Below, one piece after another: positions 2,362 to 56,206 of a stretch of 64,000 nt of DNA. The position numbers and the translations under genes were made by a program. Positions within the stretch are counted from its first letter, which is position 1; the number at the start of each line of letters is the position of its first letter. The stretch is taken from NCBI GenBank assembly GCA_951406725.2, contig OX597819.1:69068001-69132000 (forward strand), given 5' to 3'. Source of the DNA: Octopus vulgaris. Taxonomy: Eukaryota. A model generated the notes under the pieces. The model was not told the DNA's origin. It saw only the letters and a program-made list of their open reading frames with translations, and did not search any database.

Positions 2362-2686
2362 TAAAGAATAAAAAGATTTCAATGGTACAACGATGCACTA
2401 TCATACAAACAATGGGCTATATACCGGTTGTAATTTAGTCAGCCATAGTCCGATATGATATTTCGGAATAAAATTCCTTCTTCAGATATACTTAGATGTA
2501 GTCGCTGTTATAATCGTTCTTCCAACGGGTTTTCCTGTTATATAATCAGTAGTGACTCCATCTAAGAATATCTGAAGAAGGAATTTTATTCCGAAATATT
2601 ATCAGACCATGGCTGACAAAATGAAAGAAGTATATAGCCTATTATTTGTATTACAATGCATTGTTGTAATATTCAAAACTTTTCTT

Positions 2687-3101: not shown

Positions 3102-3168
3102 TTACTCTTTTACTTGCTTCAGCCATTTGATGTGGGCATGCTGGAGCTCCGCCTTTAAGACGTGTGAC

Positions 3169-3286
3169 GCTTACAGCACCTAGGTTTCCTAAGCGGTCAC
3201 CCATCTAAGTACTAACTAGGCTCGACGTTGCTTAACTTCGGTGATCGGACGAGAGGCGGTGCTTTCAACGTGATATGGCCGTATCC
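3169..3286 (-). rRNA. 5S rRNA: Orphan 5S rRNA copy (probable pseudogene/retrocopy)
   Basis: Minus strand reads GGATACGGCCATATCACGTTGAAAGCACCGCCTCTCGTCCGATCACCGAAGTTAAGCAACGTCGAGCCTAGTTAGTACTTAGATGGGTGACCGCTTAGGAAACCTAGGTGCTGTAAGC (118 nt) with the hallmark 5S motifs; two mismatches in helix I and no oligo-T terminator. Confidence 0.9.
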
Positions 3287-11420: not shown

Positions 11421-11562
11421 AATTATATGTTGATTATATATAGATTATATATAGATTATATATAGATTATATATAGATTATATATATTTATATTATTTCA
11501 TTGATAAATTTATATTATTTTAAACTTATATTTTAAAATATTGATATTTTTAGATCGGAAAT

Positions 11563-11606
11563 CCACCTGACGAATGTCATTTGAAGACATGAAACAATTG
11601 TAGTGG
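11563..11606 (+). ncRNA. Minimal type I hammerhead ribozyme (5' pLTR)
   Basis: CCAC-CTGACGA-ATGTC-ATTTGAA-GACAT-GAAA-CAATTG-TA-GTGG: intact core, 5-bp stem II, palindromic stem III; predicted cut after GUA (11602). Confidence 0.9.
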
Positions 11607-11842
11607 CGATTTATTTACTTTATATTAAATTTTTTTATGTATTGATTAAGTCTTCCCTTGTTTGATTTGCAAAATAGTGGTTTTGTCTCGAATTAATATT
11701 ATATAATATTTTACTATAAAATTGGATTTAATCCTAAATCTGATTTTTTCCCTGTAATTTTGGATTTATTCCCTAATATTTATTATTATTTAATATATTG
11801 ATAATTTTGTATATTGAGTGTAATACCTCAATTTCGTAAATT

Positions 11843-14305
11843 ATGGAATTTACAGGTAAGATAGAACCGCTATTTTGGGATTCATCTTTGAAAGATATTC
11901 CTATACCTTCTAGAAAGGAATTTATTTTGAAACTTATTAATAATGTTAAAGGTTTTATTTCTAGAATTAAATGGAAAGCTTATTACTATAATTTTTTATT
12001 TATTTAATGATAATGATAGTAGGAATGATAATTTTACCTATAAATTTAAATCTAGAAAGGAACCTCCATTTAATAAAGAATTACAATTACTAGAAGATAA
12101 TATATGGAAGGTAGTAAAAAATATTGAATTCCATAAATACCCAAATAGAAATAATGAATATTTAAGAAACTTAGCAATTAGAATTAAAGATATGAGAAAT
12201 ATGGATGGTATTATAGTACAATCTGATAAAACTAGGAATTTATATAAATTAGATGTTAAATTATATGATAAACTCTTAGGGAAAGAAATAATTAAAAAAT
12301 ATAAAATTGTTCCAGATGATATACTTTATAATATTAATAAGGCCTCTAAATTAGTAATGTTAAAATATGAATTGGATAATAAAACTGAACCTTATGTACC
12401 TTTGCACCCCAAAATTACTCTTAAAGACCATAAAGATAATTTTTATTCGGACCCTAAAGTTAGATTAATTTGCCCATGTAAATCTGACCTAGGTAAATTA
12501 AGTAAATTTATTTTAGATAAATATATTAATAAATTAAATAAACTTAATTATTTAAAATTATGGTTTAGTAATAACAATACATTGAAATGGTTTAATAATA
12601 TTAAAGATAAAAATCGTTATAAATTTATTCAAATAGATATAGATAATTATTATTCTTCTATTAATGAAATTGTGTTTAATAAAGCCCTTATTTTCGCAAT
12701 GAATAAGGTGGGAATGTCACTTGAAGAAGTTAATGGTTAGGAAATCGCTCATTAAATATAAAAATAAATTATGGGCTAGGAATGATACTAGAGATTGTTT
12801 TGATATACCTATGGGAGCACCAGATTCTGCACAAGCTACTGATTTAGTAGGTATTTTTCTTTTATCTGAACTCCAATTAGAAAATCTTAAGATAGAGGGT
12901 GGTTTATATAGAGATGATCTTCTACTAATTACAAATAATTGTACTAATAGGAATCTAGAAGTATATAAGAAAAAACTATATAGTTTCTTTAAAAGATATG
13001 GTTTAAGTATTACTATATATAAGGAGAATTATAATGTTAATTATTTAGATGTTAATTTTAATCTAATTACAGGTAAAACACAACCATATCATAAAATTAA
13101 TGAGAACCTTAGATATATAAATGTTAATAGTAATCACCCACATTCTATTAAAAAATCTTTGATTAATAATATAAGTAAACGTATTTCATTACTCTCTTAT
13201 GATATAGAGATTTTTAATAAACATGCTACTTATTATAATGAGGCCCTTAGAGGGGCAGGTTATAATAGGAATATTAAATTTTATAATATTAATGATAAAG
13301 ATTTAACTAATAATTTTCGAGATAATTATAATAATAATAATTATAATTTTGTTAGTATTAGTGGTAAAAATATTAGAAATTATAAAAATAAAAATAATAA
13401 AAATAAAAATAAAAATAAGAATAATAAAAATAAAATTAATAATAATAATAATAATAATATTGATAAAATTAATAATATTAATAATTCCTTAAATGCTGTA
13501 CATAGATATAATTCTGTTAATAATTTTTTATAAGATAAAGAATTATAAATATAATAATTATAATAATGACAATTATAATAATAAGGTTAATAAGAATAAA
13601 ATTTGGTTGATAGTTCCTTATGGTGATCAAGTAAAAACGAATATTATCAAAGAGATTTTAGATGTTATAGAACTATTTATTAGAGATAATCGTAAATATA
13701 AAAACATTTTCTCTAGTAATAATTTTGGAGTAGGTTATTCCACTACTAATAATGTAGGTAACATTATTTCTTCATTTAATAAATTTAAATTGAATAATTT
13801 TTATAAAAATAAATTATTTGATAATAATAATAAAGATAAGACATATATTAATTGTACTTGTAGAGATAAATCTAAATGTAAATTAAATAATAAATGTAAT
13901 ATTAACGATGTAGTGTATAAATATATAGTTACATTACATGATAATAACTTTAAGAATAATAATTACCCAAAAGCGGTTTATATAGGGTCTACTTCCTCTA
14001 AAATAAAATTAAGAATCGCACAACATCTGAATTCTTTTAAAAATAAAAACTTAATCAACTCCACTGGACTTAGTAAGTACATTTGGAGACTTAAATCACA
14101 AAATATTAATTATAGTTTAACTTGGGAAATAATTTGTAAAACTAAATCATATACTATAGGAGCGAATTGTTGTTATTTATGCTCTAATGAGTTTAAAGAA
14201 ATTTTATTTTATAAGTATGATAATTTACTTAATACAGGTGAAGAGCGCAAAATAAAATGCAGACATAGGTTACTTTACCTATATAATAAGTTTCATGATA
14301 AATAA
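11843..14305 (+). pseudogene. Penelope RT/GIY-YIG ORF broken by about three frameshifts
   Basis: MEFTGK..SLKDIPIPSRKEFILKLI..RIKWKAYY; QSDKTRNLY; LKDHKDNF..PKVRLICP; DIDNYYSSI; PMGAPDSAQATDLVG; LYRDD; YLDV; CTCR..C....C; VVY..YIGST..RIAQH; CYLCSNE; KCRH. Frame changes near 12000, 12735 and 13530. Confidence 0.9.
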
Positions 14306-17096
14306 CATTAATAGCTCCCTATTAAAGGTTACTTTAGTATAATATTAATTTTAGTTTAGAGTACCATATATTTTTAGTTATGTAGTGTAGGCTTTAATTA
14401 TAGTTAGTCTTTAATCGGTGTTTCTTTGTTTTCATTAATTTATTATTAATGTATATTAATATATAACAGTTCATGGAATATTGAGTTTGGTAAGTTAAAA
14501 CTTTATTTATTTATATTAGATTTATTTTATTTTATTTACTTATTTATTTATTTATTTTATTATGTATAAGTTATATGTATATATGTGGATATATATTATT
14601 TATGGATGATATGGGCGTATTTAGTGGTGTATATATTGAGTTTTGTATGTATGTGTGAATGTTTACAATCCCTTTGTGTTATATTTGGTATGTTGATATG
14701 GCAGTTTTATTTGGGTATTGTTTGTTGCAATATACGTTTATATAGATATTTAGGAGAGTGTCCGTGAATATGTAGGTATGGGTGTGTATGCATGTGTGCG
14801 TGTGAACAAGTGCAAGGGTAGGTGCGGGAGTGTATGAGTGCTATGTAATTGAGTGTGATTATTTATGCACTTGTATACATGCATGTTTGAATGTGCGTGT
14901 GATTGCACCCGTCTGCGTGTACACACTCATATATACATTTATTACATATTTCTTTACTTTTTTGAAAGAGTGTATTTTATATATATGTGTATGTGATGAT
15001 ATGTGTGAATGTATATATATATATATATTTTATATATATATATTTATGTTTGTATATGTATTTATTTAATAATCTATTGGGTGTGGGAATGTATATGGTG
15101 TATATATCGAGTTTTGTACGTATGTATTTGTATGTGTGAGTGTGTATATGGTTATGTTTGTGGATGTGTGTATATATGTGAGTGTATTTGTGTGTATTGT
15201 GTATTTGGTAAGGGGGTTTTATCTTTATATTTGTATGTATGGATTTCGTTTATCATGATTGTTTTATTAAAGAATTTTTTAGTATATTTAGTCCCCATGT
15301 ATTATAGCTTGGTATGTTGTTCATGGTAGTTTTTTATTGGGTATTGTTTGTAGCCATTTATACGTATATTTGATGTTTAGGAGAGTGTCCGTGAATATGC
15401 ATGTGCATGGGTCTGTGTGCATGTGCGCGTGTATAAGTGCATGTGTAGATGCGGGAATGCATGATTGCTTTGTAAAAGTGTGAGCTTGTGTATGCACTTG
15501 TATACATGCATGATTGATGTGCGTGAGATTGCACCCATTTTTATGGATATATGTATTTATTTATCTGTATGGGTGTGGGTGTATATATTTTGGTGTATAT
15601 ATCGAGTTTTGTACGTATGTATATGTATGTGTGAGCGGAGTGGGTATATGTATAGGTAGTGGGTGTGTGTTTTACGTGTGTGTAATTGTGTGTGAATGTA
15701 TAGATTAGGGGGATTGCTATATAGGTATGTTATAGTGTTTGGTAAAGGGAGGTTTTATCATTATATGTATATTTGTGTTTCGTTTATCATGTTTGTTATA
15801 TTAATGAATTTGTTATTTCTGTCTATTTACGTTGATTAAAATATTATAATTCATAATTTTTAAATAACGTTCGTTCACCAAGCGCAAAGAATTTTTATAA
15901 ATATGTTCGGTTTCTATGGTAACGTAATTTTGTGAACGTTATAATGGTTAGAGTTTAAATTCACTTCATAAATTAAAACTGAATAGAAGGTATGTATTTT
16001 ATCTCCTTATGTTAATATTGTTACTTATGTTAATCTGGTTACTTATGGAGTGTTCTATATATCGTATTATGTGTAGAAATGTTGTTTTTCTTTTGAGTGT
16101 TTATGTATGTGTGAATGTGTGTGTGTGTGTATTTGTTTGCGTAATTTATTTATCTGTATGGGTGTGGGTGTGAATATATTGTTGTATATATCGAGTTTTG
16201 TACGTATGTATATGTATGTGTGAGTGGGTATATGTATCTGTTGTGGGTGTGTGTTTCACGTGTGTGTATTTCTGTGTGAATGTATGGTTATGGGGATTGC
16301 TATATAGGTATTATTGTGTATGGTAAAGGCAGTTTTATCATTATATGTATATAAGGGTTTCATTTATCATGGTTGGTTTATTAATGATTTTTGGAGTAAA
16401 TTCTGTCTATTTACGTTGATTAAAATATTATTCCATTCTATTCCATTCATAATTTTTAAATAACGTTCGCTCACCACGCGCAAAGAACTTTTTGTTTTTC
16501 TTTTGTGTATTTATGTATGTGTGAATGTGTGTGTGTGTGTGTGTGTTGGTTTGTGTAATTTATTTATCTGTATGGGTGTGGGTGTGAATATATTGGTGTA
16601 TATATCGACTTCTGTACGTATGTATATGTATGTGTGAGCGGGTATATGTATATTGTTTATGAATGTGGGTTGTATGTGTGTGTGAGGGAGTATGAATAAG
16701 TAATGTGTTGAAGTATTTGGCTATTTTATTAATTTATCGTTGCCTAGATGTTTTTGTGTGTATGTATAGAGTTGTATATATAGGTGTGTGAGTTAGTGTA
16801 TGTATTTAGATATGGTTATTTATACTTAGATATATGTGTATGAGCATGTGTGTATATATAGTTTATTTTTATTTTGTTTTTTGTTTTTGTTTTTTGTACA
16901 TCTTTAAATATGAGAACTTTAATAATAGGTTTCTTTATATTCAATTGTTTATAGGGTTTATTTTAGATTATATGTTGATTATATATAGATTATATATAGA
17001 TTATATATAGATTATATATATTTATATTATTTCATTGATAAATTTATATTATTTTAAACTTATATTTTAAAATATTGATATTTTTAGATCGGAAAT

Positions 17097-17140
17097 CCAC
17101 CTGACGAATGTCATTTGAAGACATGAAACAATTGTAGTGG
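17097..17140 (+). ncRNA. Minimal type I hammerhead ribozyme (3' pLTR)
   Basis: Identical to 11563-11606. Confidence 0.9.
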
Positions 17141-17832
17141 CGATTTATTTACTTTATATTAAAATTTTTTATGTATTGATTAAGTCTGTCCTTGTTTGAT
17201 TTGCAAAATAGTGGTTTTGTCTCGAATTAATATTATATATACATATATATATATAAATATATATATATTCATGTATGTATACAGAGAAATAATGAAAGAG
17301 AGTGAGAGAGAGAAAGAGATACACGCACATTTCTCCTAGCGTTCACGAATTTCCTCTCATTCTGGTCTAACGGCCCTCTATGTTTCTTTTCGTACGGTTT
17401 TCTTGTATGTATCCACTGCCTTACATTTGTTCCCAGCCTTGAGCCTCCATAAATCCTAAATTTTTTATTAGGAAATTTATGGGAGCAACCAACTTTGAAG
17501 ACACATATTGTCGTTGAATGTTCGAAATGAGGAGTAGATAGACAGCCGACAACTGATGAAGGGTCGCTCTCTTTATTTGCTGGTCCTGTTTTCCATTTTT
17601 CTTCCATTGCTTGCGTATTTAACTTGTTTGTTTTCGTATTTCATGTTGTTTACACGGGTAGTAACCTCCTGTAGCCATATATGCATATCCATATATATGC
17701 ATATATGTGTGTATGTGTGTGTGTGTAGTATGAACTACTAATAGGTTAATGGTGTGAGAACATAATCTAGCAGATGTATATAGTGTGCCTTTTGTCTCAC
17801 ATAAATAATTCACAATAGAATATACATGGCTG

Positions 17833-24995: not shown

Positions 24996-25234
24996 ATGTT
25001 TTCGTTTCAGCACACGATCTCAGATCAGGTCACCTTCTATGCTGGTACATCTCCCTCTTTCCAAACCATTTTTCTATTATCACGATCGTTGCATTGTCTT
25101 AGTCTTCTTATAAATATGTTCCTGCACTAATTTTGTACAAGCTCGGTTTAATCGGTTTTTATCAGCTTTGGGATACTTACTTGAAACGCTTTTATAGAGT
25201 TGTCAGATAAATTCGTTTGTACAGTTCTATATTT

Positions 25235-25465
25235 AAGAGATGAGGAATGATGTACATTATTTACATTCGACGGGTATTTGTCCTCATCTTGTTTGTTGTT
25301 AACACAACGTTTCGGCTGATATACCCTCCAGCCTTCATCCGGTGCCTTGGGGAAATTTCGAACTTGGGTTCTCATTCCTAAGGTATATGCTCACTGGCAT
25401 ATGGCGCAGTGGTTAAAAGCACGGGCTACTAACCCCGAGATTCCTATTTCGATTCCAGGCAGTAA

Positions 25466-25537
<72 letters not shown>

Positions 25538-27084
25538 TAATAATAATAATAATAATAGTGATTATAATAATAATAATAATAGTGATAATAATAATAATAA
25601 TAATAATAATGATAATAATAATAATAATAATAACACACACAAATGAAAGAGAAAATAAAAAAAGAATATTATAGACGAGTTAGATCAATACTAAAAACAG
25701 AGCTCAATGCTAAAAACAAGATAATAGGTATCAACACTTTAGCTGTCCCAGTTATAAGTTACAGCTACAATATCCTTAACTGGACACGAAATGAACTGTC
25801 CAAAATAGATAGGAAAACAAGAAAAATACTGACAGGATCTAGGATGCATCACCCAAAATCTGACATAGAAAGACTATATATACAACGTATAGAAGGTGGT
25901 AGAGGCCTTATACAGCTGGAAAACTACTATAAAATAACCACCATAGGACTGCAAAAATACCTACTTCAGAAGGAAGGAAAACTGATCCAGATAGCAGCAA
26001 AACACGAGCAAAACAAAAAACTGTTCTCAGTATTTAAGGAAGCTGACAAATACAAACAAGAAATCATACCACCTAATAAACACAAAGAAGAAGAAGAAGA
26101 TGATGAAGAAACAACAAAAGCTATAAAATAAATGAAATCCAAACTAAAAATAGAACAGCAACGAGCCATGATAAAACGATGGCAAGAAAAGCCCCTTCAT
26201 GGTAAATACTGCACTAAACTAAACGCAAAAGAAATAGACAAAGAAAAATCCCAGCAATGGACTCAAAGCAGAAACAGAGGGATTTTTAATTGCAGCACAA
26301 GACCAAAGCCTCCCCACCAGAAATTACCAAAAACATGTAATGAAAAGAAATATTACAAGTAACTGCAGAATATGTGGAGATGGACAAGAAACAATAAATC
26401 ATATTATCTCTAGCTGCCCAGTCCTGGCTAAGAAGGAATATATTCACAGACATGACAGAGTTGGAACCTACATACATTGGAAGCTATGCCAACATTATGG
26501 AATAACAACAGAAAAAAGATGGTATAGGCACACACCAGAAAAGGTCACAGAAAACGAGAAAGCAACCATACTCTGGGATATGCCGATACACACAGATAGA
26601 GAAATTAAGGCCAACAGACCAGATATAGTTGTCAGAGATCATGAAGAAAAAAATGCTTTCTAATTGATGTATCAATACCGGCAGATGACAACGTGTCTCT
26701 AAAAGAAATGGAGAAACTCTCAAAATACAAAGACCTGGAAATAGAGGTAACTAGAATGTGGAACCTGAAAACAGAAACAATTCCTATCATAGTAGGTGCA
26801 TTAGGCATGATAAAAAAATATTCAGACAAATACATAACAAAAACACCAGGACTTACAAACACATATAACATACAGAAAATTGCACTACTAGGCACTGCAC
26901 ACATCCTACGCAGAACACTTTCCATACAATAACCATCAGAGCATCACAACAAATCACAGCACATACCCAAGGCACACAGAGCTGCGCTCGGTAGTGAAGT
27001 GAAAGCACGCTATAAAAATAAAACTACTGAATAATAATAATAATAATGATGATGATGATGATAATAACAATGATGATGATGATG

Positions 27085-27170
<86 letters not shown>

Positions 27171-27345
27171 AAGAAGAAGAAGAAGAAGAAAAAGAAGATG
27201 ATCCAAAATTATCTTAGGAATGAGAACCCACGTTCAAAATTTCTCCAAGACAGCTGATGAAGGCTTGGAGGTTATATCAGCCGAAAATTTGTGTTAACAA
27301 CAAACAAGATGAGGACAAATATCCTTCAAATGTAGATAATGTAAA
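25235..27345 (+). mobile_element. tRNA-head/(TAA)n/hammerhead-tail element with an upstream inverted tail copy, interrupted by a Dong-like LINE
   Basis: Inverted tail at 25235-25385 (hammerhead-like 25301-25346, -); tRNA-like head at 25392-25470; (TAA)n; tail at 27205-27345 (hammerhead-like 27249-27295). The same order recurs at 45510-46385 (-). Confidence 0.75.
25633..27030 (+). mobile_element. 5'-truncated R4/Dong-like non-LTR retrotransposon (REL endonuclease) in (TAA)n
   Basis: GGRGL; CRICGDGQETINHIISSC (CCHC); RHDRV; RPDIVV; EKLSKYKDL; nearly identical to 54748-56148; flanked by (TAA)n. Confidence 0.9.
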
Positions 27346-27611
27346 TTCGTTTGTATCTTCTGTATCTGAAATGAGGTAAAGTGAATTCAAGTATCAATAA
27401 TGAGAAACAAAAAAACCTGCATGAGAACCATCAAATACTATGATAAATATATTTTTCTAGTTAATTCAAATAGATTTGGAAAGAAGTGAATGAAACGAAC
27501 GAATTTGTCAGAAGAAGCAATAGATTATTTGTTTATATGTACAAATCATTAAGCACCTCCCCGTTAAGTCGAAACTGCTCTAGGTGTAATGGTATTTAAT
27601 GTAATGTTATT

Positions 27612-30981: not shown

Positions 30982-31148
30982 CATAAGGGACTAAAGCCAT
31001 CTGAATATGGCTAGGGACAGGCAGGGTGGTGGGGGTGTTACTGTTGCATTTAGCCCCAGGCGAACATCGACGTCACCAGAAAGGCTCGACACCGTCACGG
31101 TGCCCTTAACCTGCAAAGGGAGGTAATTCCCCGATGAAGCGGAAACCA

Positions 31149-31194
31149 CACACGGACCATGGTTTCAAGGTGTATTGCCTATCGTCGGCGTGTG
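31149..31194 (-). ncRNA. Type I hammerhead-like motif, variant core
   Basis: Reverse complement of the motif at 32100-32145. Confidence 0.72.
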
Positions 31195-31496
31195 GTAGGC
31201 TTCCGCTTCCTCGACGAATTCTCACTCTGCAGGATATTCATATATAGATTTTCAAGCAAAATACATTTGCTGATTTCGAAAATCTGTTCGAAAGCAATAA
31301 TAATTCTCTAAAAGAGATATAGACAGTAACTGCTCGATAACATAAGGGATAAGCCATATAGGGACAGGGCAGGGTGGTGGGGGTGTTACTGTTGCATTTA
31401 GCCCCAGGCGAACATCGACGTCACCAGAAAGGCTCGACACCGTCACGGTGCCCTTAACCTGCAAAGGGAGGTAATTCCCCGATGAAGCGGAAACCA

Positions 31497-31542
31497 CACA
31501 CGGACCATGGTTTCAAGGTGTATTGCCTATCGTCGGCGTGTG
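31497..31542 (-). ncRNA. Type I hammerhead-like motif, variant core
   Basis: Reverse complement of the motif at 32100-32145. Confidence 0.72.
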
Positions 31543-31739
31543 GTAGGCTTCCGCTTCCTCGACGAATTCTCACTCTGCAGGATATTCATATATAGATTTT
31601 CAAGCAAAATACATTTGCTGATTTCGAAAATCTGTTCGAAAGCAATAATAATTCTCTAAAAGAGATATAGACAGTAACTGCTCGATAACATAAGGGACTA
31701 AAGCCATCTGAATATGGCTAGGGACAGGCCTAGGCCTAC

Positions 31740-31785
31740 CACACGCCGACGATAGGCAATACACCTTGAAACCATGGTCCGTGTA
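31740..31785 (+). ncRNA. Type I hammerhead-like motif, variant core
   Basis: As 32100-32145, with one stem I substitution (31785 G>A). Confidence 0.7.
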
Positions 31786-32099
31786 TGGTTTCCGCTTCAT
31801 CGGGGAATTACCTCCCTTTGCAGGTTAAGGGCACCGTGACGGTGTCGAGCCTTTCTGGTGACGTCGATGTTCGCCTGGGGCTAAATGCAACAGTAACACC
31901 CCCACCACCCTGCCCTGTCCCTAGCCATATTCAGATGGCTTTAGTCCCTTATGTTATCGAGCAGTTACTGTCTATATCTCTTTTAGAGAATTATTATTGC
32001 TTTCGAACAGATTTTCGAAATCAGCAAATGTATTTTGCTTGAAAATCTATATATGAATATCCTGCAGAGTGAGAATTCGTCGAGGAAGCGGAAGCCTAC

Positions 32100-32145
32100 C
32101 ACACGCCGACGATAGGCAATACACCTTGAAACCATGGTCCGTGTG
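32100..32145 (+). ncRNA. Type I hammerhead-like motif, variant core
   Basis: CACACG-CCGACGA-TAGG-CAATACA-CCTT-GAAA-CCATGG-TC-CGTGTG; predicted cut after GUC (32139). Confidence 0.75.
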
Positions 32146-32459
32146 TGGTTTCCGCTTCATCGGGGAATTACCTCCCTTTGCAGGTTAAGGGCACCGTGAC
32201 GGTGTCGAGCCTTTCTGGTGACGTCGATGTTCGCCTGGGGCTAAATGCAACAGTAACACCCCCACCACCCTGCCCTGTCCCTAGCCATATTCAGATGGCT
32301 TTAGTCCCTTATGTTATCGAGCAGTTACTGTCTATATCTCTTTTAGAGAATTATTATTGCTTTCGAACAGATTTTCGAAATCAGCAAATGTATTTTGCTT
32401 GAAAATCTATATATGAATATCCTGCAGAGTGAAAATTCGTCGAGGAAGCGGAAGCCTAC

Positions 32460-32505
32460 CACACGCCGACGATAGGCAATACACCTTGAAACCATGGTCC
32501 GTGTG
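32460..32505 (+). ncRNA. Type I hammerhead-like motif, variant core
   Basis: Identical to 32100-32145. Confidence 0.75.
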
Positions 32506-32719
32506 TGGTTTCCGCTTCATCGGGGAATTACCTCCCTTTGCAGGTTAAGGGCACCGTGACGGTGTCGAGCCTTTCTGGTGACGTCGATGTTCGCCTGGGG
32601 CTAAATGCAACAGTAACACCCCCACCACCCTGCCCTGTCCCTAGCCATATTCAGATGGCTTTAGTCCCTTATGTTATCGAGCAGTTACTGTCTATATCTC
32701 TTTTAGAGAATTATTATTG

Positions 32720-33149: not shown

Positions 33150-34255
33150 GACGATGAATAATACCATTTGTCAAAAATAAAGTTAAATTTCTTTTATGGA
33201 ATATCATAGTTCCATTTCCTTCAAGGTAAGCAAAACACTCGCTTTGTACAATTTGACATTTTGAATTATTATACTTCTGTCTCCCTTATCTTATTGAATA
33301 AGCTATTAATATTTGCTCGTAATTTCGTTAATATCCTTCGATCCGATATTAACGTTATTCTGGCAGCGAAAAAGGCATTAATTAAATTTCATGAGCGATA
33401 CTCAATTAGAAGTTAATCTATGAACTACTTCAGTATTACTATGTGTTTGCCAGATTCAGCCCAGATGGCAGACCTTGTGGGGCTATATGTTCTTTCGTAA
33501 ATTAAGAATGGTTTTCCAAACGTATCTGCTTAGCTCTATAGCGATGACTCTCTCTTGGCAGTAAATGACTTATCTAAACCGAAAGTTGAACGTACAAAGA
33601 AGTTATGAAAAAAATTCATTTTGATTTTTTCTAAATCTCAATATTATATTTGATACTAACACAAAAATTCTGAATTTTTTGGGATGTTACACTAAATTTA
33701 AACACCGAGCTATATTACCCTTACCGGAAACCAAATCAAGCATTACGATATACAAAAGTTTCTTCTAATCAACCAAAATTGTCCCTTGATAGTATTATTA
33801 CGTCTATCTCTTTTAGGATCTCCAACCTATCAGCAAACGTGATCTTTAATGCACATGCCCTGTTTTATAATCAAGCCCTAAAATCAAGCGGCTTTTATGA
33901 TCATATTTTCTACATCCCTGATACCAAACTCAAAATCAAATTAGCTAATCTTTCATCTGACAGGAATCTTGAAATTACTAATACGATTTCTTCCTTAAAT
34001 TATAATAATATAAGAAAACCTTTGAACCATACCAGACTTCATAACCATCATTTTAGTAACGGTAATAAATGTAGTCCTTCTGTAACTGAAAACCCTAATG
34101 TTGTAACCCACTCTAAATATAGAAAAATGAAAGTACTTACTTCGACACCGCAAACTCTTATTTCCTCTTAGTGTCAACATTTACCAACATTGTTCTTTAA
34201 GATCCTGAAATTGAATTTTCCTCAGCACCATAAATATTACACCATATTTAAGAAA
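33150..34255 (+). pseudogene. Degraded Penelope RT fragment (second PLE family)
   Basis: LIFARNF..VILAAKKALIKF..FSITMCLPDSAQMADLVGLYVLS and RISNLS..IFNAHALFYNQALKSSGF align by eye with 12721-13533. Confidence 0.85.
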
Positions 34256-34256
34256 C

Positions 34257-34296
34257 ACTCGAACCTGGGTTCTCATTCCTAAGGGATTTTTCGATG

Positions 34297-34378
<82 letters not shown>

Positions 34379-34447
34379 CATCATCATCATCATTATTATT
34401 ACTATTAATATTATTATTATTATTACTATTATTATTCAGATCACTGA
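34257..34447 (-). mobile_element. Partial third copy of the tRNA-head/(TAA)n/tail element
   Basis: Minus strand reads CAGTGATCTGA-(TAA)n-CATCGAAAAATCCCTTAGGAATGAGAACCCAGGTTCGA; no LINE inside the (TAA)n. Confidence 0.7.
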
Positions 34448-44364: not shown

Positions 44365-45509
44365 ACCCCTTCTCTCTCTCTCTATCTATAACATGAAAAT
44401 ATTGCTCTCTGTGTTTAGTTATGAGAGGGAGTCTATGTCAATCGTATGTAATTTATCTCTTCTAATGTTTCTTTCATTCTCTCTTTCTCCTTATATTTCT
44501 CTCTCTCTCTTTCTCTCTTTCTCTCTCTCTCGCTCTCTCTCCGATTTTAATATCATTTCATTCATATGATAACGATGTCCATGAAGAGAACGGTTGTTTC
44601 GAAGAAAAAGAGAAAATAACTGACTGAAGAAATCGAAAAAGAATCCGCGATGTAAACAGAAAAAAATATAGTCGTATGTATGAGTGTGTGTGTGTATGTA
44701 TATATGTGTGTGTGTTTGCTTTTGTTTTTGTGTTTGTGCCTCTGTCAGGACTTGACGACCGGCGTTGGTGTGCTTACCTTCCAGTAAATTAGCGGTTGGG
44801 CAGAACAACCAGTAGAATAAGTACCAGGCTTACAAAGAATTAGTCCTGAGGCTGATTTCTTCGACTAAGAATACGTTTATGGCGCTGCTCCTGCATGGCC
44901 GCTGCCCAATGACTGAAACAAGTAGCAGAAAAGAATAAAAGAATAAACGAATGCTTTGTGTGTTGTTGATTTCTATATGTTGATTCTATTATGTTTTCCA
45001 TTAGTGAATACATCCTTATGGACAGTTGATAAACATGTCTGCTGACGTTTTCCCTACTCATATCAAATAATGAATATGCATGATGGCTTCCAGCTGGCAG
45101 GATCATTGGAATGTCGGATGAAATGCTTTGCTATATTTTGTCCTGGGTTATGAGTTCGAATCCCGGCAAGATCTGGGTTGCATTTCAATCCATTCTGATT
45201 TCGATTACTTAACTTATCAGTTACCTACTGGGGGTAGATATAATCGACCTGCCCCTCCTCTCAAAGCTGCTGGCATTAGACCCTGCTACGAACCGGCTTC
45301 TAGGTTGGGGAGGGGCTGTGATTTCGGTCACGTTTATGCCATGGAATCCAGATAACCGGTTTTATGAGTCCTTGTGCTCCAGAAGACAGAAAAATACATG
45401 TTACTTCTCAGAGTCTCTCGTCAAGTGGGCTTTACCTATGTTATATCTTCTTATGTTCAGGCTTTAACCTTCATGTATATATTAAAGTATATATTCTTTT
45501 CTCTAACTC

Positions 45510-45660
45510 ATTATATTTGTACATTATTTACATTTGACGAATATTTGTCCTCATCTTGTTTGATGTTAACACAACGTTCCCGTTGATGTACCCTCCAGGT
45601 TTCATCAGGTGTCTTGGGGAAATTTCCAGCCTGGATTCTCATTCCTAAGGTATTTTTCAA

Positions 45661-45693
<33 letters not shown>

Positions 45694-46265
45694 TTTCTTT
45701 TTCTTCTTTCAAAATTGCTTCCATTTCTTGCCGAGTGTCTTCCCGACTCCTAGGGCAAAGAAACTCATAGTATACATTGGTAGGCCATTAAACCAAACTC
45801 AGTACTTCGTTCATTTTTTTTTTTTTTAAAGTTAAATTAAAATTTCTCGTCCAAATAGGCCCTATTTGGACCTACTTTAAAAAAAAAATGTCTGAGTTTG
45901 GTTTTGATTCCGTGTTCTCCATATACTGTAAGAGTTTGCGGTGTGTCTCTCTTGAGATGGCCTACCTAATGCATAGTAATAAGCGTATATTACTTCTTTA
46001 TACTCTTCTCGGGTCCATTTGTTCCGCTTACATTTTTCTTTCTGTGGTCGTTGTGGTGGTGAACTTGGAGGGCTCGAGTTGGGGGATTTCCCGTTCAAGT
46101 GACCATCCATGTCCGTATTCGGAGAAGAGTTTGTGCCAGTTGATGACTTTTCGATCCCAGGCTGGCTCTTCCCTGGGGGACGCGCTTCCAGATTAACCAT
46201 AGGACAAGCGATTTGGTATACTGATTTAGTTTTCCTTTTAGTGTCCAAAAACATTTTGGTGCTAC

Positions 46266-46317
<52 letters not shown>

Positions 46318-46385
46318 CATTCAGGTCACTGCTCGGAATCGAACTCGGAATCTTGGGGTTAGTAGCCCGCGCTCTTAATCATTAT
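45510..46385 (-). mobile_element. tRNA-head/(TAA)n/hammerhead-tail element with Dong-like fragments inside
   Basis: Head at 46321-46385 with B box GTTCGATTCC; (TAA)n; insert; (TAA)n; tail with GACAC-CTGATGA..GGAA-CG-TT-GTGTT (45568-45613). Confidence 0.75.
45885..46268 (-). mobile_element. R4/Dong-like LINE 5' end fragment
   Basis: RNKWTREEYKEVIYAYYYAL..SYSIWR resembles the N-terminus ILHAYFTAV..TYKIWK at 52597. Confidence 0.65.
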
Positions 46386-47388
46386 ATTTGGTTCTATTTC
46401 AATTGTTTTCATGCACGGATATGAATATACAAGGTTTGTTTTCTGAATTTATGCCACTATATTTCAAAGTATATCTAACATTAGCTGGATTTCATGCGAA
46501 AGAATAATTTCTCTTTTCATTGTTTAAAAAAAATTTGTTTCATCTCCGTTTTAATATCTGTGCGTGAGTGTTGGCTTTTGTGATTTTTCTCCTCAGATAA
46601 CTTTCAGAAATATACGTAAGCTTGTATTTTATTGTCCTTTTATTTCAGTTTCTTTTTTTAAAATTAAATTTAGTTTTTATAAATCCATATATTTTTGTGT
46701 GTCTCAATACCTATTATTCTATTTCTAGTAATATTCAAAAACACTTCTTACTTCACATCCTGGGAATACGTGTCTATATGTGAAAGAAAATCTATGCTTT
46801 CTTGATAAAGAGAACGGCATTTTTTTCCTTTTTACATTCTGTTCTTCTTAAGAACACCAGACGATGATATGCATGTGAAGTTTGTGTTGGCGATAGTTTT
46901 CCTATATGTCTGTTTCATAAACAGTATGTATTATTGTTGGACTTAATTTTTTTTAATTATATTTTTACAGTTTATTAGTTACTATATTGAGAATGAGTGT
47001 ATGGGTGTGACTTGTTCTGTGTTTAAATAGTCAGACACTACTAGAGTGTTTATATATCGCTATTTTGATTTATTATAATTGTGTCGCTGCAAATTATTAA
47101 TAATTTTTTTTTACACTTTAACATAATTTTATGGAAAAATATTTAGTATCTTTTAGAATATTATTTTGCTTGACAATTTTTTTTTTTATTCTGTCAAATT
47201 CAAAAATATATTTCAAATTAAATTTCACAATGTGCATAGCGTTAGCGATTATTTTCTTTTATTTTAATCTTAGTAATGCTTCGTCTGTTACTGAGTTGGG
47301 TATTTTTCTAGTTAAGTTATATTTAATGTATATCATGGCTCGTATATCAAGGTGGAAATTATTTCTTTTACCCTTATATATATGTATG

Positions 47389-52577: not shown

Positions 52578-52596
52578 TAATAATAATAATAATAAT

Positions 52597-55500
52597 TTCT
52601 ATACTACACGCTTACTTCACAGCAGTGCTCTACCCAAAAAATGAAAACACAACAACACATACATATAAAATATGGAAGGAAACTAACATAAATATAGACT
52701 TGGATACAGCAATGAACCCTAATAAACTAGCTAACGTACGAAAATACATTCTCAACGCAAAAAATATCAGAAATAGAAATAGAACATTTAAAAGAAAAAA
52801 ATACATCAGGAAAATGTAGATAGAAGCCACACAACAATACCCAATAATATAAACACTGAAACAGTAAAGCACGAAGACAAACGTAATATTCCCAACAAAC
52901 ACGATGTAAACAAAAAAACAACAAACCCAGACCGTAAGGTTGCATAATAATACACGACAAACAGCAAGCCAAAACACGACAAACAAACATACAAATGAGA
53001 AAGAAAACGACACAAATCTAAAACCTGGAAACAACGGAGGGGAGCCTAATGATTATAATATAAAAAGTAGAAGAATCAAAGAACTGAAAACCACAGAGCT
53101 CAAAATGGACCATCGACCATACTTCCCAAAAATCAAAGTAGACGAAACAACAACATCAATCATAAATAGCATAAACCTAGCCGTCACGGAAATAATAGCC
53201 ACTGAAACAAAAAGCGATATCACTGAGCTAAATGACTTAGTATATGCAGCAGCCACTGCAGCCACAAAAGAAGCTGGATACTCACCCAAACCCATCCAAA
53301 CAGGAGTACCACCACCCCAACAAACCCTTTTCATAAATAACATCCAAAACAAAATACAAAAAATGAAAAAAGATCTGTCGATTCTTAATGAAATGGGTAG
53401 ACAATCAACGCTACTGAGCAACAAAAAGAAAACAAAAATACTCCGCAAATACAACATCACAGAAAAAGATTTACCTGAGATAAAAGAAAAGCTAAAGCAA
53501 GATATCCTTGCCAAAGCACAAAGGATCCACCGGTACGAGAAACACCAGCGCTTCTTTGAACAAAACAAAAAGTTCAACTCCAACTACAAAAAGTTCTACC
53601 AAGAACTTGGCAAAAATAAAATAGAAATCACTGCAGCACCAACGGCAGAAGAAGTGGAAGAATTCTGGAGAGAAATATGGTCGGCGAACGAACAAGCAAA
53701 ACAAAAGGAGTATTAAAACAACAAACTCAGCATCTGAGCAACTTTGGACCCCCATAACAACTGAAGAGGTCACCCAGGCACTGAAAAGACTAAGCAAATG
53801 GAAGGCACCTGGACATGACAAGATCCCCAACATCTGGTTGAAATATCTAACAGGAATGCACAAAAAGCTGGCTGAAAACTTTAACAACATACTAGCAGAG
53901 CCAGAGACAATGCTTGAATGGCTCACGAAGGGGAAAACCATTTTAATTCCCAAATCAAATGAGACAGCACAAGCAGAAAACTACAGACCAATAACCTGTC
54001 TCCCTACAATGTACAATTTACTGCAGTGATATCGCAAAGGTTGAACAAGCACCTGGACGAAAACAACCTGTTTCCAGAAAAGCAGAATGGATGCCGCAAA
54101 GGCTCATATGGCTGTAAAGATCAACTAATGATTAATAAAGCCATAACTGAAGACAGCCACAGAAAGAAGAAAGGCCTCAGTATGGCCTGGATCGAATACA
54201 AAAAGGCGTTTGATAGCATCCCCCACACATGGATCCTCTAAACACTAGCCATTAACAAAGTAGCACCAACAATCATAAAATTCATAGAGCACTCTATGAA
54301 TAAATGGCAAACAGTCCTACACCTCCAAACAAAAGAGGGACTCATGAAAACCAAAGACATCCCCATTAGAAGAGGAATATTCCAGGGAGACACGCTCTCT
54401 CCACTCCTTTTCTGCTTGGCACTGTCACCTCTATCTAATATGCTAAATAGAACTGGATGCGGATATAAATGTTACAGCAAAACGATCAGCCACCTTTTAT
54501 ATATGGATGACCTAAAACTATACGCTGCAAATGACAAACAGCTGGAAACACTATTAAAGACAGTTCATGGATTTACCAAAGAAATAGATATGAAATTTGG
54601 ATTAGAAAAATGCGCCAAAGTAACCCTGAAAAGAGGAAAACTAGTTAAGAGTAACAACATCACACTAGATAAAACCAATGAAATAAAAGAATTAGACCAA
54701 AGCCAAACTGACAAATACTTAGGAATCTATGAACTAGATAAGACACAACACACACAAATGAAAGAGAAAATAAAAAAAAGAATATTGTAGACGAGTTAGA
54801 TCAATACTAAAAACAGAGCTCAATGCTAAAAACAAGATAATAGGTGTTAACACTTTATCTGTCCCAGTTATAAGTTACAGCTATAATATCCTTAACTGGA
54901 CACTAAATGAACTAACCAAAATAGATAGGAAAACAAGAAAAATTATGACAGGATCTAGGATGCATCACCCAAAATCTGACATAGAAAGACTATATATACA
55001 ACGTATAGAAGGTGGTAGAGGCCTTATACAGCTGGAAAACTACTATAAAATAACCACCATAGGACGGCAAAAATATCTACTTCAGAAGGAAGAAAAACTG
55101 ATACAAATAGCGGCAAAACAAAAAACTGTTCTCAGTATTTAAGGAAGCTGACATATACAAACAAGAAATCATACCACCTAAAAAAATATGAAGAAGAAGA
55201 AGAAGATGAAGAAACAAGAAAAACTATAAAACAAATGAAATCCAAACTAAAACTACAACAGCAAAGAACCATGATAAAACGATAGCAAGAAAAGCCCCTT
55301 CATGGTAAATACTGGACTATACTAAATGCAAAAGAAATAGACAAAGAAAAATCCCAGCAATGGTTGGAGAAGCTCAGCACTCAAAGCAGAGACAGAGGGA
55401 TTTTTAATTGCAGCACAAGACCAAAGCCACCCCGCCAGAAATTACCAAAAACATGTAATGAAAAGAAATATAATAAGTAACTGCAGAATATGTGGAGATG

Positions 55501-56144
55501 GACAAGAAACAATAAATCATATTATCTCTGGCTGCCCAGTCCTGGCTAAGAAGGAATATATTCACAGACATGACAGAGTTGGAACCTACATACACTGGAA
55601 TCTATGCCAACATTATGGAATAACAACAGAAAAAAGATGGTATAGGCACACACCAGAAAAGGTCACAGAAAACGAGAAAGCAACCATACTCTGGGATATG
55701 CCGATGCACACAGATAGAGAAATTAAGACCAACAGACCAGATATAGTTGTCAGAGACCATGAAGAAAAAAAATGCTTTCTAATTGATGTATCAATACCGG
55801 CAGACGACAACGTGTCTCTAAAAGAAATGGAGAAACTTTCAAAATACAAAGACCTGGAAATAGAGGTAACCAGAATGTGGAATCTAAAAACAGAAACAAT
55901 TCCTATCATAGTAGGTGCATTAGGCATGATGAAAAATATTCAGACAAATACATAACAAAAACACCAGGACTTACAAACACATATAACATACAGGAAATTG
56001 CACTGCCAGGCAATGCACACATCCTACGCAGAACACTTTCCATACAATAACCATCAGAGCATCACAACAAATCACAGCACATACCCAAGGCACACAGAAC
56101 TGCGCTCGGTAGTGAAGTAAAAGCACGCTATAAAAATAAAAATA

Positions 56145-56148
<4 letters not shown>
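52597..56148 (+). mobile_element. Near full-length R4/Dong-like LINE, frameshifted
   Basis: WKAPGHD; GKTILIPK; NYRPITCLPTMY; KKAFDSIPH; RRGIFQGDTLSPLLF; HLLYMDDLKLY; CCHC; RHD; RPDIVV..LIDVSIP..K..KY; flanked by (TAA)n. Confidence 0.93.

Positions 56149-56206
<58 letters not shown>

Follow-up and report, generated by a model that had tools for sequence, protein, structure and literature searches.

Three loci in the analysed window, a stretch of 64,000 nucleotides of Octopus vulgaris DNA, carry copies of one insertion unit, in which a tRNA-like head is joined through a (TAA)n array to a tail with a minimal type I hammerhead. The reality of this composite unit, which is of the type made by Penelope-like elements (PLEs), is well supported. 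We favour the reading, at a probability of roughly 0.7, that it represents a high-copy, non-autonomous PLE derivative: a putative RNA polymerase III (Pol III) unit that would be copied in trans by a PLE protein, i.e. a SINE with a PLE as its partner. The initial annotation had proposed such a Pol III promoter joined to a PLE end and using PLE machinery, and the unit itself, its two 3' ends, its inverted copies and the intact majority core of the hammerhead all support this proposal. The fuller statement, namely that a Pol III SINE made up of a tRNA promoter and a 170-base PLE end exists in tens of thousands of copies across Octopus and is undescribed as such, has in our judgement about an even chance of being right.

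The composite unit and its interruptions

The order of head, (TAA)n and tail was recovered, as originally annotated, at three loci: 25396-27343 on the forward strand (locus 1), 45520-46378 on the reverse strand (locus 2) and a partial copy at 34259-34447, also on the reverse strand (locus 3; Table 1). The tail has a length of 140-175 bases. Local BLAST within the window found it four times (three complete copies and one cut copy) and the head twice, together with a 13-base head remnant at locus 3. A (TAA)n array and a tail lie 3' of all three head ends, and BLAST of the window's other TAA arrays gave no head match; the setting as a whole is AT-rich and microsatellite-rich. Pairwise identity among the three complete tails is 84-89% (112-119 of 133-134 columns). 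The element is non-coding and, with LINE inserts subtracted, measures about 76 + (TAA)n + 140-175 bases, which is below the 700 bases that SINEBase sets for SINEs.

Table 1 Positions of the element's parts, target-site repeats and LINE inserts in the window
Feature	Position	Strand	Basis
Left target-site repeat, locus 1; 14-base match (10-14 without the TA common to the element ends)	25208..25221	+	junction comparison
Inverted PLE-type tail copy with long 3' end (33-base extension 25220-25252)	25220..25386	-	BLAST; 3' end clusters in contigs
Minimal type I hammerhead motif in inverted tail; U4 -> G in this copy	25301..25346	-	
Short palindrome at inverted junction, 6-base arms 25385-25390 and 25397-25402	25385..25402	.	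sequence
tRNA-like head, 5' start 25392-25396; A box 25402-25412, anticodon-like arm, B box 25446-25456	25396..25471	+	box scan; contig joints to 25396
(TAA)n array, first half, locus 1	25472..25633	+	BLAST
Secondary insert in locus 1: 5'-truncated, frameshifted LINE fragment, 1.4 kb	25632..27031	+	93.8% identity, 1421 columns, to 54747-56153
(TAA)n/(GAA)n array, second half, locus 1	27032..27204	+	
Direct tail with short 3' end, locus 1; hammerhead motif 27249-27295	27205..27343	+	BLAST, motif alignment
Right target-site repeat, locus 1	27342..27355	+	
Locus 3: final 13 head bases, (TAA)n, initial 38 tail bases; cut at both ends	34259..34447	-	
3' target-site repeat, locus 2	45508..45519	-	
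Locus 2: tail (short 3' end) after (TAA)n; hammerhead motif 45568-45613	45520..45692	-	
Insert of 576 bases in locus 2, flanked by a TAA array on either side: 5' piece of related LINE	45693..46268	-	weak tblastx
Locus 2: head truncated at 5' side (B box 46335-46344 intact) and (TAA)n	46269..46378	-	
5' target-site repeat, locus 2, 12-base match	46379..46390	-	

Locus 1 had been taken as a single element, which overlooked the separate LINE fragment in its middle; locus 2 is likewise interrupted by a LINE-like piece. The fragment in locus 1 contains zf-RVT, and its longer copy at 54747-56153, which also ends in TAA, contains both RVT_1 and zf-RVT. A long, frameshifted LINE is located between TAA arrays at 52596-56206 on the forward strand, and the insert in locus 1 is its 5'-truncated sister. 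We take these LINEs to be of the Dong/R4 type by features of that type, a C-terminal restriction-like nuclease and a TAA target. Dong-R4 is described as an active family in O. vulgaris (PMC13282606; here and below, statements on published work refer to those parts of the cited papers that were available). The interior of locus 2 matches the front of the LINE copy at 52.6 kb weakly (tblastx, 35% over 31 residues, E 5e-5). Both LINE pieces would be later inserts into the TAA array of the element. A LINE 3' end as the source of the tail was rejected, as comparison with the window's LINE gave no real match (best E 0.21).

The initial annotation had expected target-site duplications to be absent. 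Instead, both complete loci are bounded by one: at locus 1 a single 14-base repeat encloses the inverted tail, the head, the LINE insert and the direct tail, and at locus 2 a single 12-base repeat encloses head and tail. Target-site repeats were found at two of the three window loci; locus 3, which is cut at both ends, showed none. Both repeats sit at element junctions, where 1-2 bases at each repeat end could belong to the element, and 12 or more shared bases occurred in only 22 of 20000 random pairs of 51-base windows.

These repeats bear on the possibility that the head is a tRNA SINE in its own right, which ends in (TAA)n, was carried into TAA arrays by a Dong/R4-type LINE and met PLE ends through a shared microsatellite preference. 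LINE pieces did enter these TAA arrays, and CTGAA precedes the TAA array in both the head and the LINE, a likeness with only about three informative bases. However, head and tail lie within one target-site repeat at both complete loci, no TAA is present upstream of the head at loci 1-3, the tail follows 3' of the head in all three window heads, and the 5' junction of the tail is fixed and preceded by TAA. We regard nesting as a distinctly improbable account of the present copies; it may describe the first origin of the chimera.

Insertion scars across the family

The family was followed in contigs of four of 21 listed runs, which were aligned to 25050-25480 (unique flank, inverted tail and head). 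Two insect-metagenome runs with a share of 0.06 were disregarded. X1, X2 and X5 are DNA-type runs (organism labels A, B and D), of which X1 may be the source of the window, and X15 (label A) is guessed to be RNA; being contigs and not reads, these data do not show transcription starts. Matching contigs numbered 34387 in X1, 19654 in X2, 24845 in X5 and 1376 in X15. Their flanks are unlike, and X5 and X15 gave no cover on the unique flank. The joints, junction fills and loose-end rows listed comprise 15 of 135, 12 of 101 and 24 of 1079, respectively. Summed depth in X1, which does not equal copy number, rises from 55 in the flank to 3-7 million across the tail; most of the head reaches 0.5-1.1 million and its first 15 bases 64 thousand, head depth being lowered by the divergence of the locus 1 head. 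Such a profile suggests that the family is very large and has more tails than heads; as tail depth far exceeds head depth, only a minority of units are full-length.

Each of the three DNA-type runs shows two clusters of 3' ends with 33 bases between them, at 25253/25256 (426/77 contigs in X1) and 25220/25222 (271/107), beyond which follow long, unlike, AT-rich flanks without a simple-repeat tail. Upstream of the tail, the loose ends consist of a TAA array in 279 contigs of X1, 184 of X2, 263 of X5 and 17 of X15 (agreement 0.63-0.73). Strand-change joints of head, TAA and tail within single contigs were present in all four runs (X1, 4 and 2; X2, 8; X5, 6; X15, 1 and 1) and make up three of the 15 joints listed. 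The proposed linkage of head and tail was largely borne out: a single target-site repeat encloses the two at both complete loci, and they occur together within individual contigs in each of the four runs.

The inverted tail that had been noted before locus 1 is present as well, reaching 25220 and not 25235. Among the 15 joints listed, nine join an inverted tail to the head, six of them at 25388-25398 and three to a truncated head. Together, the joints and junction fills listed contain at least seven distinct inverted-tail breakpoints that meet the head start at 25388-25398, four of them at 25396. At 25391 the majority of X1 depth (77%, 36 contigs) has C in place of T, and with this letter each arm of the junction palindrome lengthens to 7 bases.

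At their 5' end, PLE units are described as bearing a 5'-truncated copy in inverted orientation, and an extension of 30-40 bases often occurs at just one of the ends (PMC8557442). They are flanked by 8-10-base duplications and have junction palindromes, and their terminal repeats move unrelated sequence in trans (PMC3846280). The extension has been tied to two reverse transcription start sites downstream of the hammerhead, and both target strands are cut and extended, with insertion in vitro proceeding without a need for cleavage (PMC11167929). The octopus element possesses the minimal type I hammerhead, the optional 3' extension of 30-40 bases at one end and the inverted, 5'-truncated copy at the 5' side. 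Locus 1 combines the long end on the inverted copy with the short end on the direct copy, a junction palindrome with 6-base arms and an enclosing duplication.

Could head, TAA array and tail simply be the 3' end, a long pseudo-LTR, of an autonomous PLE? On this view all the short copies would be inserts of that PLE with its usual 5' truncation, and the tRNA-like piece would be a long-standing passenger lacking promoter function. PLEs do undergo strong 5' truncation and pick up foreign and (AAT)n sequence (PMC3846280); in our data, depth declines steadily from tail to head, and 36 X1 contigs reach 25391, upstream of the head start. In contrast, the inverted-tail breakpoints converge on the head start, and the few bases upstream of it are the junction palindrome; depth is 4 thousand at 25391 versus 62 thousand at 25407, and the majority retains the two promoter boxes at their canonical distance. 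The six best rows per DNA-type run also showed no shared upstream loose end, a weak point, as the head start is under-covered. The initial annotation had named this reading as one that would overturn its own; the fixed 5' junction disfavours it, whereas it gains from the fact that no autonomous PLE partner was found, either in the window's PLE or among long PLE proteins compared with one of the three tail frames. We consider it unlikely.

The window PLE at 11432-17239 was rejected as the partner, its repeat and hammerhead failing to align with the tail. It is a complete, frameshifted element on the forward strand with 274-base direct repeats (98% identical), reverse transcriptase-like and GIY-YIG-like ORFs at 11931-14305 with an asparagine-rich stretch, intact hammerheads at 11561-11608 and 17095-17142, and a 2.6-kb GT-rich repetitive spacer before the 3' repeat. 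A second PLE reverse transcriptase fragment is located at 33342-33919 (+; 40-44% to P0001). An intact minimal hammerhead of unrelated sequence at 2451-2491 (-) is probably the end of a third PLE family. Inverted and direct repeats of 330-370 bases at 31020-32643 are 100% identical, representing a young fold-back or an assembly artefact.

Octopus sinensis, O. bimaculoides and O. vulgaris are the named sources of the proteins nearest to a window ORF and of matches to tail translations. The tail-frame protein search gave 55 matches, 19 of which belong to a related family; two of the remaining 36 look unrelated, and six have the 3' extension by pattern. Translation P0005, one of two matches among 2348 candidates (the other is unrelated), reads head, N-run and tail, as does the diverged translation P0060. 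Exact-pattern scans of metagenome, genome and viral contigs gave no match. The related tail family (P0011, P0023-P0025, P0038 and others) has the same 3' end and a non-TAA upstream part and is tandem, retrozyme-like, in 10 of its 19 database translations; those looked up derive from ENA contigs. P0062 (O. sinensis cysteine-rich receptor-like, isoform X2) and P0013 (an O. bimaculoides dystrobrevin isoform) include tail translation near the start and leave it at the same residue, which hints at a shared splice donor in the tail. At 25276, 25323 and 25334, A>G and T>C are 10-60 times more frequent in X15 than in X1 (at 25276, 16.7% versus 0.6% in the DNA-type runs). This excess is as expected from A-to-I editing of double-stranded transcripts of both strands; it stems from another sample and is silent on the polymerase.

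Promoter boxes and hammerhead core

Both A and B boxes had been claimed for the head. They are present at canonical spacing in the family majority, but none of the window copies preserves the pair intact: the A box of locus 1 is accompanied by a B box with one change, the B box survives at locus 2, where the head is cut behind the A box, and locus 3 retains about 13 head bases. An A box and B box at 34-base spacing match once in the window and in none of 100 shuffles; this spacing was taken from the locus itself and falls within the published range of 30-35 (PMC8969392). The A box fits the SINE promoter consensus of the same paper exactly, from which the B box departs by one change in the majority and at locus 2 and by two at locus 1. 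The B-box majority letter at 25447 is G in 95% of contig depth.

Rfam gave no tRNA or hammerhead match, whether the search took in the entire window with E at most 1 (best 150 of 171 matches) or two short stretches with E at most 10, and ARAGORN at default settings reported no tRNA at the head. A cloverleaf appears there only once its threshold is relaxed to a level also passed by 36 of 300 shuffles, and this match was dropped as tRNA evidence, being too weak against shuffles. The absence of T4 runs was likewise dropped as evidence for Pol III, as 3003 of 5000 shuffles also lack them. The head is a putative Pol III promoter, from which the element is likely transcribed and which it likely uses as SINEs do. 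The window also contains tRNA-like SINE heads of another family at 337, 50087 (+) and 61094 (-) and a full-length 5S rRNA copy at 3168-3286 (-; 92 bits).

The hammerhead motifs were correctly placed in the initial annotation, as were the distinct mutations of each copy, and every window copy has at least one damaging change. In addition to the U4 change in the inverted tail, the copy at 27249-27295 has a helix I mismatch and a CG -> AT change in helix III that keeps the palindrome, and the copy at 45568-45613 is changed at A13 and in helix II. Only one of the three passes a hammerhead descriptor, and its single core change puts it at a level that was matched in 7 of 20 shuffles of the window. 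Because single copies do not beat chance, the hammerhead claim rests on the family majority.

In this majority the core is intact, as the proposal had required: U4 is restored in 98% of depth in X1, X2 and X5 and in 93% of X15 depth. Among the rows listed, the first core strand varies only at the free position N7 (12-24%), and core variation in X1 is confined to N7 and two CpG sites (10-31%); CpG decay affects helix III in about 30% of depth. RNAalifold on the three window motifs predicted helices I and II unaided and left the core unpaired. In the named hammerhead structure 32 of 36 cells pair, versus 22-56% for slid partners, and no significant covariation was found among the three sequences (154 of 500 shuffles reach the same level). 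Minimal hammerheads are characterized by an extra base after A9, a G10.1-C11.1 pair and a palindromic 15.2-16.2 pair without a loop (PMC4209133), all of which the tail motif has. Its cleavage-site triplet GUU lies 53 and 86 bases before the two 3' ends. The majority tail motif has an intact minimal PLE-type hammerhead core and is a putative ribozyme.

A proposed PLE-dependent SINE and its precedents

If the element is a Pol III unit copied by a PLE protein, transcription would start at 25392-25396 and read through across the tail. The PLE reverse transcriptase-endonuclease would then bind the tail and nick AT-rich DNA with a 10-14-base stagger, and reverse transcription would start at one or other of two sites that lie 33 bases apart. 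For locus 1, the head-to-head arrangement could result from priming from both target ends or from fold-back at the 5' hairpin, and early stops would produce the surplus of tail-only copies. As helix III has no loop, folding of the hammerhead would require two copies; within one transcript it probably rides along uncleaved, because a cut would separate the promoter from the 3' end.

That the element is instead a non-LTR retrozyme, whose tandem copies cut themselves as dimers and form circles that serve as templates for reverse transcription, has the slimmest chance of the alternatives: the intact majority core, the tandem copies of the related tail family and the derivation of retrozymes from PLE ends (bioRxiv 10.64898/2026.07.22.740005) would suit it, whereas the window copies are single or head-to-head, their 3' flanks are long and mutually unlike, the ends lie past the cleavage site and not at it, and no tail-to-head tandem joint occurs among the joints listed or the window copies, rare arrays still being possible.

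Among the closest precedents are schistosomes' Sm-alpha and Sj-alpha elements, which are tRNA-derived (Sm-alpha from tRNA-Gln), number over 10,000 copies, carry a promoter followed by a hammerhead and are reported to be transcribed by Pol III (PMC2770079, PMC6765202); PMC8293314 likewise describes Sm-alpha as a tRNA-derived SINE-like element with a hammerhead. The initial annotation overlooked these elements when it spoke of an unusual SINE class. The octopus element resembles Sm-alpha in its tRNA-like head, a putative promoter, and in its hammerhead and high copy number. Sm-alpha, however, is described as forming tandem repeats with a canonical active hammerhead, whereas the motif of the octopus element is minimal and PLE-type, its spacer is TAA, and its copies are dispersed, stand singly or inverted and bear PLE scars. 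The available text of PMC2770079 and PMC6765202 names no mobilising element for Sm-alpha.

Endonuclease-positive PLEs (Penelope/Poseidon, Neptune and the Adineta vaga Penelope) share with the octopus element the minimal hammerhead near the 3' end and the 30-40-base extension at one end (PMC3846280, PMC8557442, PMC11167929, PMC4209133), and also the inverted 5' copy, the junction palindrome, the short target duplication and the movement of foreign sequence in trans. Unlike them, the octopus element has no ORF and a fixed tRNA-like 5' end, its captured piece has been amplified as a family and not once, and its target repeats measure 10-14 bases instead of 8-10. Non-autonomous PLEs include MRC1 of Chlamydomonas and short Heliconius elements (PMC8557442, PMC6685494), and retrozymes have been proposed to be non-autonomous PLE derivatives (bioRxiv 10.64898/2026.07.22.740005, PMC7761336, PMC7229834). 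Both groups resemble the octopus element in being non-coding, with PLE-related ends and proposed PLE machinery, and retrozymes have been called a possible new SINE type (PMC7761336, PMC8969392). Retrozymes are defined by tandem units and circular RNA, in contrast to the single or inverted octopus copies. The texts searched give no account of an internal tRNA promoter in retrozymes, and the preprint bioRxiv 10.64898/2026.07.22.740005 contains no mention of tRNA or Pol III. With Sm-alpha, retrozymes and other non-autonomous PLEs as precedents, the octopus element is a variant and not a new category.

SINEBase defines SINEs by their partner LINEs and, in the text available, does not mention Penelope (PMC3531059). 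The tRNA SINEs collected there resemble the octopus element in size below 700 bases, A and B boxes in a tRNA-like head, target duplications and high copy number; they differ in that the octopus element has its simple repeat internally, a PLE-type 3' end and no partner LINE end that we could see. A classical SINE has a partner LINE and a 3'-terminal simple repeat. The octopus element lacks a simple-repeat 3' end and does not match the 3' end of the window's LINE; it functions as SINEs do but is kept apart from the classical ones. It is distinguished from tRNA SINEs by description, and it may be identical with one of the octopus tRNA SINEs OK, OR1 or OR2. The published literature searched describes no tRNA-headed SINE mobilised by a PLE; most subscription papers, Repbase and Dfam lay outside this search, so a prior description is possible. 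The available parts of two cephalopod repeat papers, PMC13282606 (no mention of hammerhead in its supplement) and PMC8967140, likewise describe no such element.

Of 900 recently active SINE families, 893 are unclassified (PMC13282606), and the element may account for some of the SINE and Penelope sequence in octopus genomes that lacks a classification. How PLEs insert is poorly understood; a fixed 5' start and a 170-base recognition end would amount to a minimal substrate, and the many thousands of junctions form a large natural data set on how the inverted copy and the pair of 3' ends originate and on what the hammerhead does. The finding would also suggest a mobiliser for the schistosome Sm-alpha elements. 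SINEs are defined as dependants of LINEs, a rule that a tRNA-headed element with the full set of PLE scars would widen; if the reading is true, SINE parasitism reaches from LINEs to telomerase-related retroelements.
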